Assembly: GCA_005191425.1 (NCBI GenBank)
Contig: SUPR01000010.1
Coordinates: 1-32,000 of the forward strand
DNA length: 32,000 nucleotides
Direction: 5' to 3'
Source of the DNA: Candidatus Helarchaeota ASGARD archaeon Hel_GB_B
Lineage (GTDB): Archaea; Asgardarchaeota; Lokiarchaeia; Helarchaeales; HEL-GB-B
The notes under the pieces were generated by a model, which saw only the letters and a list, made by a program, of their open reading frames with translations, was not told the DNA's origin and did no database searches. How positions within the stretch are numbered: position 1 is the first letter of the stretch; the number at the start of each line of letters is the position of its first letter. Positions 6,218 to 23,195 of the stretch are shown in pieces. The translations under genes were made by a program, and so were the position numbers.

Positions 6218-7621
6218 ATGATAGAAATTGAAAAATTAATACCAATTAATATAGGATTACTTGGGCATATTGACCACGGGAAAACAGCATTAGCAAGAGT
6301 ATTAAGTGAAATAATTTCAACGGCTGGATTAGATAAACATAGACAAGCTCAAGAGAGAGGGATTTCAATAGATATTGGTATAACGTCATTTATTTTGGAT
6401 AACAAATATTTAATAACGCTTGTTGATGCTCCAGGACATGCTGATTTAATTAGGAGTGTTGTTGCAGCTTCAAACATAATTGACGGTGCAATAGTCGTAA
6501 TTGCAGCTGATGAAGGACCTAAAATTCAAACAGGAGAGCACTTATTAATCCTTGAAAGTTTCAATGTAAAAAACATTGTCATTGCGTTAAATAAAATAGA
6601 TTTAGTTTCTGATTCAGTAGTTAGTTCTAGAATTAATGAAATTAAGAGAATTTTGAAAAATACAATATTTTCAAATGCACCGATCATTCCAATATCAGCA
6701 AAAACAAAGAAAGGTATAAATGAATTAAAAAAGGAACTATTAAACATAATAAAAGTACCTGAGCGGGATATATCAGGGAATTTTAAGATGCCAATAGACC
6801 ACGCATTTCAAATAAAAGGAGTTGGGACAATTATTACGGGTACAGTTCATAGGGGTATAATTAAGGTTGGTGATACTATTGAAATTATGCCAATAAAGAT
6901 TCAGAGAAAAATCAAATCAATTCAGATTTTTAAAAGGCCGGAAAATAAAGCTATTGCAGGGCAACGAGCCGGGCTTTCTATAATTAAGGCCCCCCCAAAA
7001 GAGATTTTTCGGGGGTATTATGCGAGTAGTCCAGGAAGTCTTACAATATCAGATAAAATTATAATAGAAGGAAAAATTAATAATTTATTTGAAAGGGGTT
7101 TAAAATCAAAATTACAAGTTCATTTAACAATAGGTATGCCAACAGTTTCAGGTATAATTTATCTATTCACTAAATATAATGATAAAAATATTTTAAAAGA
7201 AAAAGTATCTAAAGGTAATAAATTTCTGGCTTTTATAAAATTAAATGAGAAAATTACACTTGAAAAAGATATGCCCGTATTAATTTCAAGGCTTGATATT
7301 CCCCCAACTAAATTAAGGATAGTTGCAAGTGGAAAAGTACTGGAAATTTTGTCAGAAATACCCGAATTTTATAGATTTAAAATAAAAGAAGGTAAAGTTA
7401 GAAATATAGATAGAAAAGAGGGAGTTGTAATAGAGGGAATAAGTTCCAACGTAATTGGTGCACGAACATATATAAATAAAGTTGTAGAAACTGATAATGG
7501 CAAAAAAGGAAAAATAATTAATACATTTGGGTCAAAAGGTTCATTATTAGTTAAATTCGACAAAAAGCCAAATTTAGGTGAAAAAGTATTTTTAAAAAAC
7601 TTAAGGCGGATTAAAATTTGA
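6218..7621 (+). CDS. selB: Selenocysteine-specific translation elongation factor, archaeal type
   Basis: GLLGHIDHGKT, RGISIDIG, LVDAPGHADLI, GPKIQTGEHL, NKID, SAKT, MPIDHAFQIKGVGTIITGT, RLDIPPTKLRI. The short C-terminal domain IV (TFGSKG) resembles methanococcal SelB. Abuts SepSecS. Confidence 0.93.
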   Translation: MIEIEKLIPINIGLLGHIDHGKTALARVLSEIISTAGLDKHRQAQERGISIDIGITSFILDNKYLITLVDAPGHADLIRSVVAASNIIDGAIVVIAADEGPKIQTGEHLLILESFNVKNIVIALNKIDLVSDSVVSSRINEIKRILKNTIFSNAPIIPISAKTKKGINELKKELLNIIKVPERDISGNFKMPIDHAFQIKGVGTIITGTVHRGIIKVGDTIEIMPIKIQRKIKSIQIFKRPENKAIAGQRAGLSIIKAPPKEIFRGYYASSPGSLTISDKIIIEGKINNLFERGLKSKLQVHLTIGMPTVSGIIYLFTKYNDKNILKEKVSKGNKFLAFIKLNEKITLEKDMPVLISRLDIPPTKLRIVASGKVLEILSEIPEFYRFKIKEGKVRNIDRKEGVVIEGISSNVIGARTYINKVVETDNGKKGKIINTFGSKGSLLVKFDKKPNLGEKVFLKNLRRIKI

Positions 7622-8946
7622 TGAATATTGATAAACTTTTAAATAATTTTATACCAAAACACATGAAAGATAGAGGAATAAATGTTTTAAATGCGAATTT
7701 TTTTCCTATTAAAGATTTATTAGAGCATAGAGTAGTCCCAGAAAATAATTGGGATGAAGAAACAATAAAATTCTTTTTTAGAATTCTTTCTCAGATGGAC
7801 ACAGATAAGGACCTAAAAGGTGTTAGGGTTGGAGAAAGAGAGGCGAGGGTAGCTTCTAACTATGTGGGAAGTCTAGCTGCATTTTTTTGTCATGGTATTG
7901 GGCGAGGAGGAAGGATCATAGGTGCGCAGCCAAAAGCGCCGGGCGCCTCAATTCTTCAAAATATAGGAAATAGGTTGGCATTAGATTTTTTAAAGAAATT
8001 GGGAAACCCAGGTCTAAAAGGAGCTATTGTATTACCATTAGCAACTGGGATGTCAATTTCTTTGGCATTAGCCACAATTAGAGATGAAACAAAAAAAACA
8101 GAAATTATTTACCCGAGAGCTGATCATAGGTCGCCATTAAAAGCTATTGAATTTATTGGACTAAAACCAGTAATAATTGAAGGTATTATAAATGATCATG
8201 GTGGCGTGGAAATACCTATTGAAAATATTGAGAATGCTATTACGGATAAGACAGCGGCAATTCTCAGCACAACTTCATTTTTCCCACCACGTGAATGTGA
8301 TAATATAAAAGAAATAGCAAAAATAGCTAAAGCCAATAAAATTGGACACATAATTAATAATGCTTATGGCGCTCAAAATCAATTCTTTATGAAAAAGATC
8401 CAAGGTGCAATCGATGCTGGCAGAGTGGACGCAATAATACAAAGTACCGACAAGAACTTTTTAACACCAGTAGGTGGAGCAATAATCTCATCTCCAGATA
8501 AGGATTTTCTTGACAAAGTTACGGAGAAATATGCCGGTAGAGCATCTGCAGCCCCTATTATTCAATTTGTGGCTGCTGTCTTGAGTTTAGGGTTAAAAAG
8601 ATATTTTAATTTGCAAGAAGAACAAAAGAAGAATAGAATTCTATTGGAAAAAGAATTAAAAATAATAGCCGAAAAATACGGCGAACGCGTCTTGAAAATT
8701 GAAAATCCAATTAGTTGTGCCCTCACAATTAATACCAGAAATGCTAAAACATTTGGTGGAGTATTATATGAGTTAAGAATAACTGGGACAAGAGCAATAG
8801 AAAAAAATTCTAAATGGGGACCGAGTATAGATAATTATCCTGATAGTTATATGTCATTAAGTGCTGCAATAGGTGCTACAGAAGAAGATATACTTAAAGC
8901 ATTTGAACGAATTGATAAAGCATTTCAACAAACGAATAAAAAATAA
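7621..8946 (+). CDS. spcS: O-phosphoseryl-tRNA(Sec) selenium transferase (SepSecS)
   Basis: Motifs VGEREARV, HGIGRGG, QPKAPG, PLATGMS, TTSFFPPR, NNAYG, PLP-lysine motif QSTDKNFLTPVGG, YAGRAS. The ATG at 7621 overlaps the selB TGA. Confidence 0.95.
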   Translation: MNIDKLLNNFIPKHMKDRGINVLNANFFPIKDLLEHRVVPENNWDEETIKFFFRILSQMDTDKDLKGVRVGEREARVASNYVGSLAAFFCHGIGRGGRIIGAQPKAPGASILQNIGNRLALDFLKKLGNPGLKGAIVLPLATGMSISLALATIRDETKKTEIIYPRADHRSPLKAIEFIGLKPVIIEGIINDHGGVEIPIENIENAITDKTAAILSTTSFFPPRECDNIKEIAKIAKANKIGHIINNAYGAQNQFFMKKIQGAIDAGRVDAIIQSTDKNFLTPVGGAIISSPDKDFLDKVTEKYAGRASAAPIIQFVAAVLSLGLKRYFNLQEEQKKNRILLEKELKIIAEKYGERVLKIENPISCALTINTRNAKTFGGVLYELRITGTRAIEKNSKWGPSIDNYPDSYMSLSAAIGATEEDILKAFERIDKAFQQTNKK

Positions 8947-9000: not shown

Positions 9001-9984
9001 TTAAATTCCAACTATTTTATCATATTTAAAATCAAAAAGTATTTCTTTATTTCCTTCATACGATAAAATCAATTTTCCTTCTTCAGTTATTTCTCCACAT
9101 TCTTTAGCTATAACCCCTTTATTTCTGAAAATTTTAATGCACTGCTCCACATTTTCTTCTTTTGTAGTTGCAACTATACCAAATCCAGGATAAGCTTTTA
9201 CCCACCGCTCTATTTCAATGCCTTCTGGAATTGGTATGTCCTCAAGATTAATAATTGCACCCTTCTTTGAACTTTCTAATAACATACCCAGAGTCCCAAT
9301 ATTACCAGGATTTGAGATGTCTTTTGCTGCAGTTAATAACTTTTTTTCTGCAATTTCATTCATCGAACTACAAACATTTCGGACATATTCAGACGATTTG
9401 TGAGAAGTAGTGTCCCAAGCGTAAATAAATTTTTCATTAAAATTACCATCCAAGTCCACTGCAAAAATTATCTTATCACCTGGTTCTGCTGTGGACGAAT
9501 AAATTTCGCAACCTTTTTTGACCATTCCTAAAATTGCAACTGCAAGAGAATTTTTATCTTCATTTGGATGTAAATGCCCCCCGACCATAGGTATTTTATA
9601 TTTTTTACACCCTTCCATAATTCCTTTAATAATTTTATTGCCTATCTGATGTGAATTGATCCCTAAATTATTTACCATGACCAATGGAACTCCACCCTTA
9701 CAATAAATATCATTTGCATTGACCAAAACAGAAAAATATCCTGCTAACTCAGGGTCTGCATCTATTAATTTATACCAAATACCATCTAATGCCATTAAAA
9801 AATAATAATTATCTATATTAGGAATTTCAAAAATTGCTGAATCTTCCCCAAATGCTCCTAATATATTCGTTATACCCAAATTTAATGTTTTATTTAATGG
9901 TTTAATGATTGTCCCAACAAGGTTCTTTCTTTTAATTCCATCAAAATTCTTTATTTCATAGATTAATCCTTTTAAATTCACCAT
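9001..9984 (-). CDS. AIR-synthase-related (PurM/ThiL/HypE/SelD superfamily) protein, methanogenesis marker 2-like
   Basis: FGEDSAI, ALDGIW, AGYFSVLVNANDIYCKGG, PMVGGHLHP, AKDISNPGNIGTLGMLLE, YPGFG. Lacks the N-terminal Sec/Cys-x-x-Lys loop of SelD. Confidence 0.8.
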   Translation of the reverse strand: MVNLKGLIYEIKNFDGIKRKNLVGTIIKPLNKTLNLGITNILGAFGEDSAIFEIPNIDNYYFLMALDGIWYKLIDADPELAGYFSVLVNANDIYCKGGVPLVMVNNLGINSHQIGNKIIKGIMEGCKKYKIPMVGGHLHPNEDKNSLAVAILGMVKKGCEIYSSTAEPGDKIIFAVDLDGNFNEKFIYAWDTTSHKSSEYVRNVCSSMNEIAEKKLLTAAKDISNPGNIGTLGMLLESSKKGAIINLEDIPIPEGIEIERWVKAYPGFGIVATTKEENVEQCIKIFRNKGVIAKECGEITEEGKLILSYEGNKEILFDFKYDKIVGI

Positions 9985-14507: not shown

Positions 14508-14953
14508 AGGTAAAGCTCGTCTCAATAAATATACAGGAATTCATTTCAAAATTAACCCATTTTTTAATTTTATCGAGTCATAAGATCTACGAAATCAATT
14601 AAAATTAAAAGGAATAACTGATATCGAATCTATATCATCGAATATATTATTTATATTAGCTAATTTATTTTGAATAACTAAAATACTAAAAAATATATTA
14701 TATTAAATTATTTAATAGAAAATCTTTTCAATTTTATATCAAATATTCATTTTTTTTAATTAAAAACTAAAATTCTATCATAAAAATAAAAATTTTATAA
14801 CATTATTTATTTTTTAACTTCCTATTTGATTTTAAGTCCCTTAAAATTTGATAAAAAACTCATTTACAAGAAATTTATATATTTTTAATTATTTTAAAAA
14901 TTATAATAGATTTTAATAAGATTATAAATTTAATATGGCGTTCTGTAGCAGTG

Positions 14954-14999
14954 GCTATAGCTGTATAAGTTTATTTGAACTTATATCGCATAGCTGTAA
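14954..14999 (+). other. tRNA-Sec intron 1 (46 nt, 5' strand of D-stem, about 15/16)
   Basis: BHB: outer TA/TG (2 bp), central helix GCAG/CTGT, bulges TG^G and AA^G, inner helix CTAT/ATAG continued by hairpin TATAAGTT/AACTTATA. Cleavage at these sites restores the D-arm exactly. Confidence 0.85.
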
Positions 15000-15023
15000 G
15001 TGGTCCACGGCACCGGACTTCAA

Positions 15024-15047
15024 TATTATAAAAATTATAATGGAGAT
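15024..15047 (+). other. tRNA-Sec intron 2 (24 nt, canonical 37/38)
   Basis: BHB: outer ACCGGA/TCCGGT, central CTTC/GGAG, bulges AA^T and AT^A, inner ATTATA/TATAAT. Confidence 0.93.
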
Positions 15048-15081
15048 ATCCGGTATACTCGATAAGAGTATGGAGTTCGAT

Positions 15082-15108
15082 ATGAAAATTGGTTAATTTT
15101 CACGAAAT
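15082..15108 (+). other. tRNA-Sec intron 3 (27 nt, T-loop 59/60)
   Basis: BHB: outer GGAG/CTCC, central TTCG/CGAA, bulges AT^A and AT^T, inner TGAAAATT/AATTTTCA with GGTT loop. Restores the T-loop TTCGATT. Confidence 0.93.
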
Positions 15109-15191
15109 TCTCCCAGAACGCCGCCAACTTTATTTTATTATTTAAAATTATTTTATTATTTATGAAATTATTATCAATTCTTTTTTCAATA

Positions 15192-15714
15192 TTAAAAAAA
15201 AATTCTTTTGAATTTAAATTCAGATAAAAATTTGTTTCTAATTTTAATTTTTTCATAATTAGCATGTATCCTATCAAATTTAATTTCTAACTTATAAGGA
15301 TATTCAAATTTTTCTAGAACGATAGGTATAATTTTAAAATTTTCGTTCGTATTTTTTTTAATCTAAAGCACTTTTTAATTCTTTTTCAATACTACGATTT
15401 TCTTCTACGGTAAACCCTGATAAAAATACTATAAAAATTGAACAAGTATCTTATATTTCCGAGATCATTTTATTCCATATATCTCCTATGCTAATTCCTT
15501 CGTCAAACCGTATTCTAACTCCTTTATCATTTAAAGTTTTTATAACACGACAAACTAAATCAACACCTTTATGGGAATTACTTACAAAAATAAACGATTC
15601 GCAACCATCAAATGACGTGAAAAGTGGATGCGTTTTTTTAATATCCAACCATTTTTTTTGGTAATCATTTTTTTTTCTATCAACTCCAAAAGTAATACCG
15701 ACAGCCCTTTCCAT
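15192..15714 (-). pseudogene. Degenerate TIR-domain gene
   Basis: FIFVSNSHK...VIKTLNDKGVRIRFDEGISIGDIW (TIR betaA/BB-loop pattern), then TAA at 15451, then in-frame DTCSIFIVFLS...IEKELKSALD*, then a frameshift in an A8 run, then FKIIPIVLEK. Confidence 0.65.
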
Positions 15715-15841
15715 ATTGATTCCTCCCTTAATAATTATTTAAATTGAAATTAACATAATAATTTATTTAAAAAAATTATATATAGTGTTATTATTTAAAA
15801 TAATTAATAAAAAGACTCAAAAATTCAAATATTTTTTAGAA

Positions 15842-16228
15842 ATGAATCGCTCACAAGATTGGATAGAAGAAGCAAGAAGAGAATTAGAAGCTGCTAAAGA
15901 TTTATATAATACAAATCATAATGCTTGGGCCTGTTTTACTTGTCATCAAGTAGTAGAGAAATCTTTAAAGGGAATTTTAGAGATTTTTAAAAATTCGATT
16001 TTTGGGCATAATTTAGTTAATTTAATAAAAAATGTAAAAAAATTTGTGAATGTTCCTAAAAAAATAGAAGATGCGTGTTTTATCTTAAATAGATATTATA
16101 TTCCAACAAGATATCCAGATGCATATCCATCAGGTGTTCCGGCTGAAATGTATAATGATAGTGATGCATCTCAAGCACTAAAATTAGCTGAGGAGGTTTA
16201 TAACTTTGCTCGAAGATTTGCAAAATAG
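15842..16228 (+). CDS. HEPN domain protein (HEPN-MNT module)
   Basis: DWIEEARRELEAA, WACFTCHQVVEKSLKG, GHNL, LNRYYIPTRYPD. ATG at 15842 is preferred over the ORF-track start at 15785. Confidence 0.88.
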   Translation: MNRSQDWIEEARRELEAAKDLYNTNHNAWACFTCHQVVEKSLKGILEIFKNSIFGHNLVNLIKNVKKFVNVPKKIEDACFILNRYYIPTRYPDAYPSGVPAEMYNDSDASQALKLAEEVYNFARRFAK

Positions 16229-16637
16229 AAAGAACTATTCAAGTTTAAAAAATTACGTGGAAAGTGTTTTAAAAAATAAAAAAAATGTTATTTCAATAAT
16301 TTTATTCGGATCACAAGCAAAAGGAACGTATTCATATAATTCTGACTTTGATTTATTCATAATAATTGAGAATGAGCCAACAAGATTTATAGATAGATTA
16401 TTAGAATTTGGAAGATACTCAGATGGACTGGTAGAGCCTTTAATTTACACGAGAGATGAAGTTGAATATATGGCTAACACATATCATACGATGGTACTTG
16501 AAGTTTGCGCAGATGGAATTATATTATACGATAAAAATCAATTTTGGGTCAATAAATGTAAAAAAATAAAGAGTTTAATTGATAAAAAGATAATTAAGAG
16601 AATTAAAAATGGCTGGGACTTGCGATTATTAGACTAA
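16206..16637 (+). CDS. Minimal nucleotidyltransferase (MNT) antitoxin-like protein
   Basis: ILFGSQAKG...SDFDLFII signature; overlaps the 3' end of the HEPN gene. Confidence 0.88.
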   Translation: MLEDLQNRKNYSSLKNYVESVLKNKKNVISIILFGSQAKGTYSYNSDFDLFIIIENEPTRFIDRLLEFGRYSDGLVEPLIYTRDEVEYMANTYHTMVLEVCADGIILYDKNQFWVNKCKKIKSLIDKKIIKRIKNGWDLRLLD

Positions 16638-22430: not shown

Positions 22431-23195
22431 ATGCGAAATTTAATCATTTTTATGGGAATACCATCATCTGGAAAAACTACATTAGCAAATTTATTAGCAA
22501 AAAGGATTGAATTAAAATTTAACAAAAAAACAATGGTAATTGGGTCAGATCAAATAAGAAAAATGATCCCAATTTTGTCAGAGAAATTTTTACCCGATAG
22601 AGAAGAAATGGTGAGGACTCTAACACTTAAATTTATAGATTATGCTTTAGATTATAATGATGTTGTTATAAATGATGATATGAATTATTATAAATCAATG
22701 AGACATGATTTTTATAAAATTGCCTTAAAAAAGAACTGTAACTTTTTTCTAATAATGTTTAAAATAGATTTAGAACGCGCATTAGAATGGAATATTAAAC
22801 GAGGTATTCCTATACCCCAAGAATTAATAAAAAATGTATCAAAAAAATTCGACCCCCCTAGTGATTATTTGTGGGATCGCCCAATATTTGTAGTAAATAA
22901 TCGCGGCGAAAATCTCGAAGAAAATGTAGATAAAATACTCACGCTTCTTCAAGATAAATTAGACATTAATTTAATTGAAAAAAATAAAAAAATTAAAAAT
23001 ACACCAGGAAAGTCCGAATATTATGATAAATTGACAAGAAAAATAGTTTCTGAACTAATCCAAAAACCTGAATTTATTGATAAAAGAGAAAATATATTAA
23101 ATTTACGGAAATCTATATTAATAGAATCAATAGATAAAGATTTTGATGAACAAAAAATTAGGACTTTATTTATTAAAAAAATCAATGAACTATAA
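22431..23195 (+). CDS. pstK: L-seryl-tRNA(Sec) kinase (PSTK), archaeal type
   Basis: Walker A GIPSSGKT, GSDQIR, DDMNYYKSMR, RGIPIP, KFDPPSDYLWDRP. The C-terminal helical domain (DKLTRKIVSELI...LRK) resembles methanococcal PSTK. Confidence 0.9.
   Translation: MRNLIIFMGIPSSGKTTLANLLAKRIELKFNKKTMVIGSDQIRKMIPILSEKFLPDREEMVRTLTLKFIDYALDYNDVVINDDMNYYKSMRHDFYKIALKKNCNFFLIMFKIDLERALEWNIKRGIPIPQELIKNVSKKFDPPSDYLWDRPIFVVNNRGENLEENVDKILTLLQDKLDINLIEKNKKIKNTPGKSEYYDKLTRKIVSELIQKPEFIDKRENILNLRKSILIESIDKDFDEQKIRTLFIKKINEL

Follow-up and report, generated by a model that had tools for sequence, protein, structure and literature searches.

Introduction

In 2016, Mariotti et al. described one 31-nucleotide (nt) intron in the T-loop of the selenocysteine (Sec) tRNA, tRNA-Sec, of Lokiarchaeota (PMC4989117), a case also treated in 2017 by Santesmasses et al. 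(PMC5330540), who gave the D-stem of archaeal tRNA-Sec as 7 base pairs (bp) and its D-loop as 4 nt. A 2022 review still held this to be the only archaeal tRNA-Sec with an intron (PMC9499178). Here we describe a tRNA-Sec(UCA) gene at positions 14937-15126 (+) of a 32,000-nt stretch of DNA (positions 1 to 32,000 of contig SUPR01000010.1, assembly GCA_005191425.1; the window) from Candidatus Helarchaeota archaeon Hel_GB_B, an Asgard archaeon from hydrothermal-vent sediment. Very probably, this is the single, functional tRNA-Sec gene of the organism, matured by removal of three introns with bulge-helix-bulge (BHB) motifs. Like the Lokiarchaeota gene, it has the archaeal 9/4 form, a 7-bp D-stem, a T-loop intron, an Asgard host and a position a few kilobases from the gene for EFSec; unlike that gene, it has additional introns in the D-stem and at 37/38. 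An initial annotation of the window, made from its letters alone, had cited the single T-arm intron of Lokiarchaeota correctly (PMC4989117) and had suggested that an architecture of three introns might be undescribed.

Sun et al. (2021) noted “unusual insertions and deletions” in some Lokiarchaeia tRNA-Sec genes and did not term them introns, which go unmentioned in a 2024 paper on the Asgard selenoproteome (PMC11227280) and in a 2026 review. Valentin-Alvarado et al. (2024) found introns in 92-95% of the tRNA genes of Atabeyarchaeia and Freyarchaeia (PMC11291895). Supplementary Data 4 of that paper lists tRNA SeC(UCA) genes of 175 and 176 nt for Atabeyarchaeia-1 and -2, with 0 introns by tRNAscan-SE, 3 by R2DT and the remark “Identified via Secmarker”. 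These genes resemble the present one in having three introns (R2DT), and they escaped tRNAscan-SE and were picked up by Secmarker; unlike it, they belong to another Asgard class, from wetland soil, and are listed in the supplement and absent from the main-text discussion, with no intron positions, BHB motifs or boundaries stated. The suggested novelty of the architecture is limited by this entry: the intron count of the present gene has its precedent in the Atabeyarchaeia supplement, and the gene stands at the far end of a pattern that many relatives in its class share.

Multiple interruption is also frequent in Asgard tRNA genes at large. Asgard lineages average more than 2 intervening sequences per tRNA gene, those in the D-arm often being missed (PMC11291895; preprint 10.64898/2026.10.13.758758), so that the initial annotation's view of triple-intron tRNAs as known mainly from Thermoproteales is out of date. 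The preprint, of October 2026, describes a systematic failure of tRNAscan-SE to detect the D-arm introns of Asgard archaea. The heavily interrupted gene sets of these two studies share with our locus the multiple BHB introns per gene, the D-arm introns overlooked by annotators and a two-paralogue EndA; they differ in that the studies deal mainly with Freyrarchaeaceae, Jordiarchaeaceae and Atabeyarchaeaceae and give tRNA-Sec no treatment of its own, whereas the present genome is a member of a large class that uses Sec and of which at least 151 species were sampled. Further afield, the tRNA-Sec genes of Daphnia pulex have an intron at 37/38 (PMC5330540), a single one, in a eukaryotic host with eukaryotic splicing recognition. 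The multi-intron tRNA genes of Thermoproteales (Sugahara et al. 2008; Marck and Grosjean 2003) are similar in carrying as many as three BHB introns each, located outside the canonical site, and in being cut by a broad-specificity heteromeric EndA. Their hosts belong to a different phylum from the present genome. Thermoproteales are not known to have a tRNA-Sec.

Anatomy of the tRNA-Sec gene

The gene call is almost certainly right, its basis being the sequence, the response of ARAGORN to the spliced form, the minimum free energy (MFE) structure, a profile score and the folding of the precursor. The gene and its exons are laid out as follows.

14937-15126, + strand: complete tRNA-Sec(UCA) gene, 190 nt, with four exons, three introns, G73 and encoded CCA
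14937-14953, + strand: exon 1, 17 nt; acceptor 5' strand (9 nt), 2-nt linker and first 6 nt of the D-stem 5' strand
15000-15023, + strand: exon 2, 24 nt; completes the D-stem 5' strand (1 nt), continues with the UGGU D-loop and the D-stem 3' strand, and ends with the anticodon stem 5' strand and CUUCAA of the anticodon loop (anticodon UCA)
15048-15081, + strand: exon 3, 34 nt; begins with the final anticodon-loop nt and the anticodon stem 3' strand, continues with the variable arm (stem of 6 bp, loop of 5 nt) and ends with the T-stem 5' strand and UUCGAU of the T-loop
15109-15126, + strand: exon 4, 18 nt; last U of the T-loop, T-stem 3' strand, acceptor 3' strand, G73 and CCA

The three introns, all AT-rich inserts, take up 97 of the 190 nt (46 + 24 + 27), and both the sequence and the search for BHB motifs agree with the initial annotation that a tRNA-Sec gene is split here by BHB introns in the D-stem, at 37/38 and in the T-loop at 59/60. 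The 5' end, GGCGUUCUG, and the 3' end, CAGAACGCC-G-CCA, form a perfect 9-bp acceptor stem followed by G73 and the encoded CCA. Removal of the introns joins the exons at the predicted junctions GCAGUG-GUGGUCC, CUUCAA-AUCCGG and UUCGAU-UCUCC and leaves 93 nt (17 + 24 + 34 + 18), whose MFE structure is the archaeal 9/4 tRNA-Sec cloverleaf, with a 9-bp acceptor stem, a 2-nt linker, a 7-bp D-stem with UGGU loop, a 6-bp anticodon stem with CUUCAAA loop, a variable arm of 6 bp and 5 nt, and a 4-bp T-stem with UUCGAUU loop. The 13 pairs of acceptor (9 bp) and T-stem (4 bp) are all Watson-Crick and are present in the MFE structures of the spliced and unspliced forms alike. Splicing places the UCA anticodon in a 7-nt loop on its 6-bp stem (ACCGGA / CUUCAAA / UCCGGU), and excision of the first intron yields a D-arm of GCAGUGG / UGGU / CCACGGC in which 6 of 7 positions pair. 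The 190-nt precursor itself folds at -69.9 kcal/mol (z = -7.0), and none of 200 shuffles folds as well.

Every tRNA-Sec gene that was read in the class encodes the 3' CCA after G73 (e.g. L157-L186; window 15124-15126); according to the 2022 review, archaeal tRNA-Sec genes do not encode CCA (PMC9499178).

Standard searches pass over the unspliced gene. Run on the raw window, with or without its intron options, ARAGORN returned no tRNA anywhere; Rfam at the gathering threshold had no match over the window, and at E <= 10 over 14850-15220 it gave only a spurious ARRPOF match, leaving the tRNA-Sec gene unseen. The Rfam tRNA-Sec model (RF01852, curated threshold 47 bits), which gives intronless relatives 57-68 bits, found nothing over the whole genome except ordinary tRNAs below the cut-off. 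Once spliced in silico, the 93-mer is called tRNA-SeC(tca) by ARAGORN. A profile hidden Markov model (HMM) built from 10 intronless tRNA-Sec genes of other orders scored the 93-mer at 46 bits (E 3.6e-14) and the raw gene at 17.5 bits, 200 shuffles serving as control and reaching at most 2.8 bits. The score climbs upon removal of introns 2 and 3 and is unchanged by removal of intron 1, because the match begins downstream of the intron 1 site. The expectation in the initial annotation that standard tRNA finders would miss the gene holds for ARAGORN and for the Rfam tRNA and tRNA-Sec models, all blind to the raw sequence; one specialised finder, Secmarker, did detect the three-intron genes of Atabeyarchaeia.

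The three introns and their predicted splicing motifs

BHB motifs were searched with a geometry of a 4-bp central helix (H), two 3-nt bulges and a cut after the second bulge base; h denotes the exon-side flanking helix and h' the flanking helix of the intron.

14954-14999, + strand: intron 1, 46 nt, in the D-stem, separating nt 6 from nt 7 of the 5' strand (mature nt 17/18); H = 14948-14951 GCAG with 14994-14997 CUGU; bulges 14952-14954 UG/G and 14998-15000 AA/G (the slash marks the predicted cut); h' at least 4 bp, h 2 bp
15024-15047, + strand: intron 2, 24 nt, at the canonical 37/38 site (mature nt 41/42); H = 15018-15021 CUUC with 15042-15045 GGAG; bulges AA/U and AU/A; h' 7 bp, h 6 bp (anticodon stem)
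15082-15108, + strand: intron 3, 27 nt, in the T-loop at 59/60 (mature nt 75/76); H = 15076-15079 UUCG with 15103-15106 CGAA; bulges AU/A and AU/U; h' 8 bp, h 4 bp (T-stem)

The central helix is paired at 4/4 positions in all three introns. Introns 2 and 3 are of the strict hBHBh' form, with flanking helices far longer than those of any other BHB candidate, and both motifs are present in the unconstrained MFE structure. In intron 1, h' has 4 bp and continues past a 1-nt bulge, and the motif is relaxed or HBh'-like. The predicted placement of this intron rests on the orthologue in a second genome of the genus (G001; the present genome is G000) and on covariation across the class. Exon 1 of G001 ends in GCAGUG, followed by U, which fixes the left boundary of intron 1. 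The initial annotation had been right that cuts after the second bulge nt rebuild a 9/4 tRNA-Sec, and had set intron 1 at 14955-15000, one position to the right of the 14954-14999 indicated by G001; the mature RNA is identical.

A BLAST search of the 190 nt against the organism's own genome returned only short AT-rich matches (E > 0.02), and hence gave no sign of the introns being repeated elements.

Comparison with relatives

The 190 nt were compared by BLAST with 60 relatives, whose loci were then read; G001 belongs to the same genus, and G002, G003, G004 and G006 to the same order. The tRNA-Sec gene of G001 contains the same three introns at the same sites. Between the two genomes the exons are identical at 92 of 93 positions (16/17 in exon 1, 24/24 in exon 2, 34/34 in exon 3 and 18/18 in exon 4), while the introns have diverged to 65% identity for intron 1, 57% for intron 2 and 83% for intron 3, a pattern that argues for selection on the exons. 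All three inserts keep the exact BHB geometry in both genomes, and the intron helices are maintained by differing sequences, as in h' of intron 1, CUAU/AUAG in G000 and CUAA/UUAG in G001.

In G002, G004 and G006 the tRNA-Sec gene is intronless and its sequence runs uninterrupted over all three predicted junctions, while G003 has the 37/38 intron only. These intronless alleles confirm the intron boundaries predicted from the BHB search. A metagenome scan with exon 2 returned two separate JGI contigs and only these, carrying copies identical to the G000-type and the G001-type gene, respectively; the three-intron structure is therefore not an assembly artefact. A scan of genome contigs with an exon-2 14-mer proved too unspecific, with at least 120 unrelated bacterial matches.

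tRNA-Sec introns across the class

The census covered 151 genomes of the class, in 142 of which SepSecS was detected. The Rfam tRNA-Sec model exceeded its cut-off in 76 of the 151 and in neither of the two genomes of this genus, which look devoid of tRNA-Sec despite their Sec machinery, as the initial annotation had foreseen for such genomes. Since the tRNA-Sec gene lies directly upstream of SepSecS in most class genomes sampled, the region upstream of SepSecS in model-negative genomes was aligned to intronless references with cheap long gaps, and the boundaries were refined by the BHB motif. In this way 130 tRNA-Sec genes were resolved; as the genomes are interrelated, the following counts describe a pattern and not independent events.

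No intron: 73/130
D-arm intron only: 13/130
T-loop intron only: 3/130
37/38 intron only: 3/130
D-arm and T-loop introns: 26/130
37/38 and T-loop introns: 10/130
All three introns: 2/130 (G000 and G001)

Interrupted genes thus make up 57 of the 130 (44%), with two or more introns in 38, and the Rfam tRNA-Sec model fails on 54 of the 57. The statement that tRNA-Sec genes are generally intronless, made in the initial annotation, fails in this class. The sites are constant throughout, at nt 41/42, 75/76 and 17/18 of the mature RNA, the last being 16/17 in four genomes, so that the comparison of intron positions among Asgard genomes that the initial annotation had proposed returns the same three sites across the class, with exact junctions in the intronless genes of G002, G004 and G006. 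Only in this genus are all three sites filled among the resolved genes.

A comparison of 31 distinct D-arm introns finds pairing at 122 of 124 central-helix positions, and the helix varies jointly on its exon and intron sides (GCAG/CUGU, GUCG/CGAU, GUUG/CAAU). Such joint change amounts, at the level of sequence comparison, to direct covariation support for a functional D-arm BHB.

Four genomes of a single genus have their D-arm intron one base further 5', at mature nt 16/17, with H = GGUU/AACC or GGUU/AACU (L216 in G033, L209 in G047, L225 in G064 and L234 in G092). The sequence of this intron is unrelated to that of the common 17/18 intron, which suggests either an independent gain at nearly the same place or a boundary that has slid. 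The T-loop intron of the window (15082-15108) shares its ends (AUGAAAA ... UUUU.A.GAA) with T-loop introns of another order (L221 in G040 and L236 in G096), whereas D-arm introns share nothing outside the constrained helix. Possibly, the T-loop intron is of old origin and has been lost time and again.

Sec pathway, splicing enzymes and genomic context

Three parts of the SerRS - PSTK - SepSecS - aSelB pathway are encoded in the window itself.

6218-7621, + strand: archaeal SelB / EFSec (aSelB); Pfam GTP_EFTU 1.8e-37, aSelB_III 1.3e-17
7618-8946, + strand: SepSecS; Pfam SepSecS 2.1e-113
22431-23195, + strand: PSTK-like kinase of the KTI12 family; Pfam KTI12 3.4e-33

From its family and neighbourhood, we infer that the KTI12-family kinase is PSTK. 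The taxa in the protein cluster of SepSecS are Promethearchaeota, in keeping with an Asgard host. The genome needs to decode Sec: its selD gene, truncated at the end of contig C31, carries a TGA in frame within a G-U-S-C-K motif near the N-terminus, and we take this to be the catalytic Sec/Cys position of SelD. No further tRNA-Sec candidate was found by covariance model or HMM in the assembly, which is 94% complete in 182 contigs.

Both splicing activities have candidates in the genome. Two EndA-family genes are present (PF01974, 98.6 and 75.1 bits), and the two proteins measure 192 aa (contig C36) and 198 aa (contig C98). For one of them the closest match is among the catalytic alpha subunits of crenarchaea (3p1z_B, 2.5e-42), whereas its paralogue is more divergent; RtcB is present as well (568 bits). 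Kaneta et al. (2018) assigned to Asgard archaea an (alpha-beta)2 EndA with an L1 loop linked to a broad substrate range (PMC5829648), and the pairing of an alpha-type with a divergent paralogue fits a broad-specificity enzyme of this architecture.

Only 16 tRNA genes by ARAGORN and 13-16 by Rfam were found in this genome, the lowest numbers among 25 relatives (19-47 in the others), and probably most of its tRNA genes are interrupted in ways that the finders cannot bridge. Greedy removal of 36,525 loose BHB candidates genome-wide, followed by ARAGORN, brought up no extra tRNAs and did not recover the tRNA-Sec gene itself; this census is uninformative because false positives swamp the signal in DNA of 28% G+C.

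An ORF (open reading frame) of the AIR-synthase family at 9001-9984 (-) sits between SepSecS and IMPDH. It was tried as selD and rejected, with 46 bits against a cut-off of 125 bits and no Sec-site motif, and is not counted as Sec machinery. Just downstream of the tRNA-Sec gene, a HEPN-domain ORF at 15785-16228 (+) (Pfam 6.3e-29) overlaps a small ORF at 16206-16637, and the two (15785-16637) could form a toxin-antitoxin pair of the HEPN/MNT type. In the relative G026, the SepSecS match (C197:20690-22012, -) holds one in-frame TGA, for which a Sec codon, a mini-intron or a sequence error might account.

Alternative explanations

Several observations weigh against reading 14937-15126 as a functional gene with three BHB introns, and most of them concern intron 1. 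Its exon-side helix has only 2 bp, its flanking helices are equalled by some chance candidates, and its BHB conformer lies 4.2 kcal/mol above the MFE in the present genome, although in G001 it is within the MFE structure; its cleavage depends on a broad-specificity EndA. In the mature form, an A.G mismatch at the third D-stem pair, found also in G001, is the sole blemish of the cloverleaf. The weakness of the intron 1 motif lends itself to an explanation in which the gene is functional and only the 37/38 and 59/60 inserts are BHB introns, the D-arm insert being removed by another route or at other boundaries, or kept as an expanded D-arm; in the same direction, the 2026 preprint reports a sizeable minority of Asgard D-arm insertions without the canonical motif, with splicing shown for none (10.64898/2026.10.13.758758). 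We regard this as very unlikely, since the fully paired central helix and the 3-nt bulges occur in both genomes of the genus, in G001 even in the unconstrained MFE structure, and the same geometry recurs at the same site, with covariation of exon and intron, throughout the class's 31 distinct D-arm introns. Moreover, excision restores exactly the 7-bp stem and UGGU loop of the intronless orthologues, and a retained 46-nt insert would destroy the D-arm. Archaeal PSTK is reported to rely on the D-arm of tRNA-Sec.

The mismatch, together with the possibility that a second copy went unassembled in a genome 94% complete and in 182 contigs, could also be taken to mean that the gene is decaying or dead, its inserts never being removed and UGA either no longer decoded as Sec or served by another, unassembled gene. 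This is likewise very unlikely in view of exons conserved at 92 of 93 positions between two species whose introns are 57-83% identical, of the exact BHB geometry at all three inserts in both species, of intact genes for aSelB, SepSecS and the PSTK-like kinase, and of a selD that requires a reader of UGA as Sec; nor did the covariance model or the HMM offer an alternative candidate. A chance resemblance, with tRNA-like pieces scattered in AT-rich intergenic DNA, might be entertained for a region of 28-31% G+C in a genome where permissive BHB-like pairings are as frequent as the 36,525 loose candidates indicate. The perfect acceptor stem, the profile E-value of 3.6e-14 against shuffles of at most 2.8 bits, the precursor z of -7.0 and orthologues across 130 genomes leave it a vanishingly small probability, and the comparative data already refute it. 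A functional tRNA-Sec gene with three BHB introns remains the reading that we adopt.

Discussion

On the reading adopted here, maturation would begin with transcription of a precursor of about 190 nt, in which three independent BHB motifs would form. Those at 37/38 and at T-loop position 59/60 would stack directly on the anticodon stem and the T-stem, respectively. In the D-stem motif, the D-stem 5' strand would pair with the 3' end of intron 1 and would thereby be occupied, so that the D-arm could form only after intron 1 is removed. EndA would then cut after the second base of each 3-nt bulge, and RtcB would join the exons. The resulting 93-nt 9/4 tRNA-Sec, with its 7-bp D-stem, UGGU D-loop, long variable arm, G73 and CCA, would enter the SerRS - PSTK - SepSecS - aSelB pathway. 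Transcription, cleavage, ligation and aminoacylation are steps that we infer from the genome.

Beyond the single locus, we give an even chance to the view that in this Asgard class, which uses Sec and is probably Lokiarchaeia, the tRNA-Sec gene hosts introns recurrently, with three fixed BHB-competent sites (D-stem 17/18, 37/38 and T-loop 59/60) filled in almost every combination and varying within single genera. In that view, this genus, with all three sites filled, represents the end state, the D-arm central helix co-evolves with the exon, and surveys that score Sec partly by detection of tRNA-Sec could under-call the trait. As far as the literature was searched, such a class-wide picture for tRNA-Sec was not found described.

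The element is not of a new kind, and after the 2024 and 2026 papers it should cause a specialist little surprise; the class-wide picture, together with the gap in detection, is of use to annotation. The sole tRNA-Sec gene of this genome and of its sister species goes undetected by ARAGORN and by the Rfam models for tRNA and tRNA-Sec, and an automated pipeline would consequently show the Sec pathway as complete but for its tRNA. The gap concerns about two in five tRNA-Sec genes of the class. One survey of the Asgard selenoproteome required tRNA-Sec among the Sec-system genes that it counted (PMC11227280).

As it combines in a single RNA a strict BHB at the canonical site, a strict one at a non-canonical site and a relaxed one in the D-stem, the precursor would offer a compact substrate for probing the range of Asgard EndA, and the 2026 preprint names a test of this range as the missing experiment (10.64898/2026.10.13.758758). 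For the organisms themselves, Sec decoding would hang on three EndA/RtcB splicing events, one of them ahead of D-arm formation, a dependence that the gene anatomy and the covariation support well.

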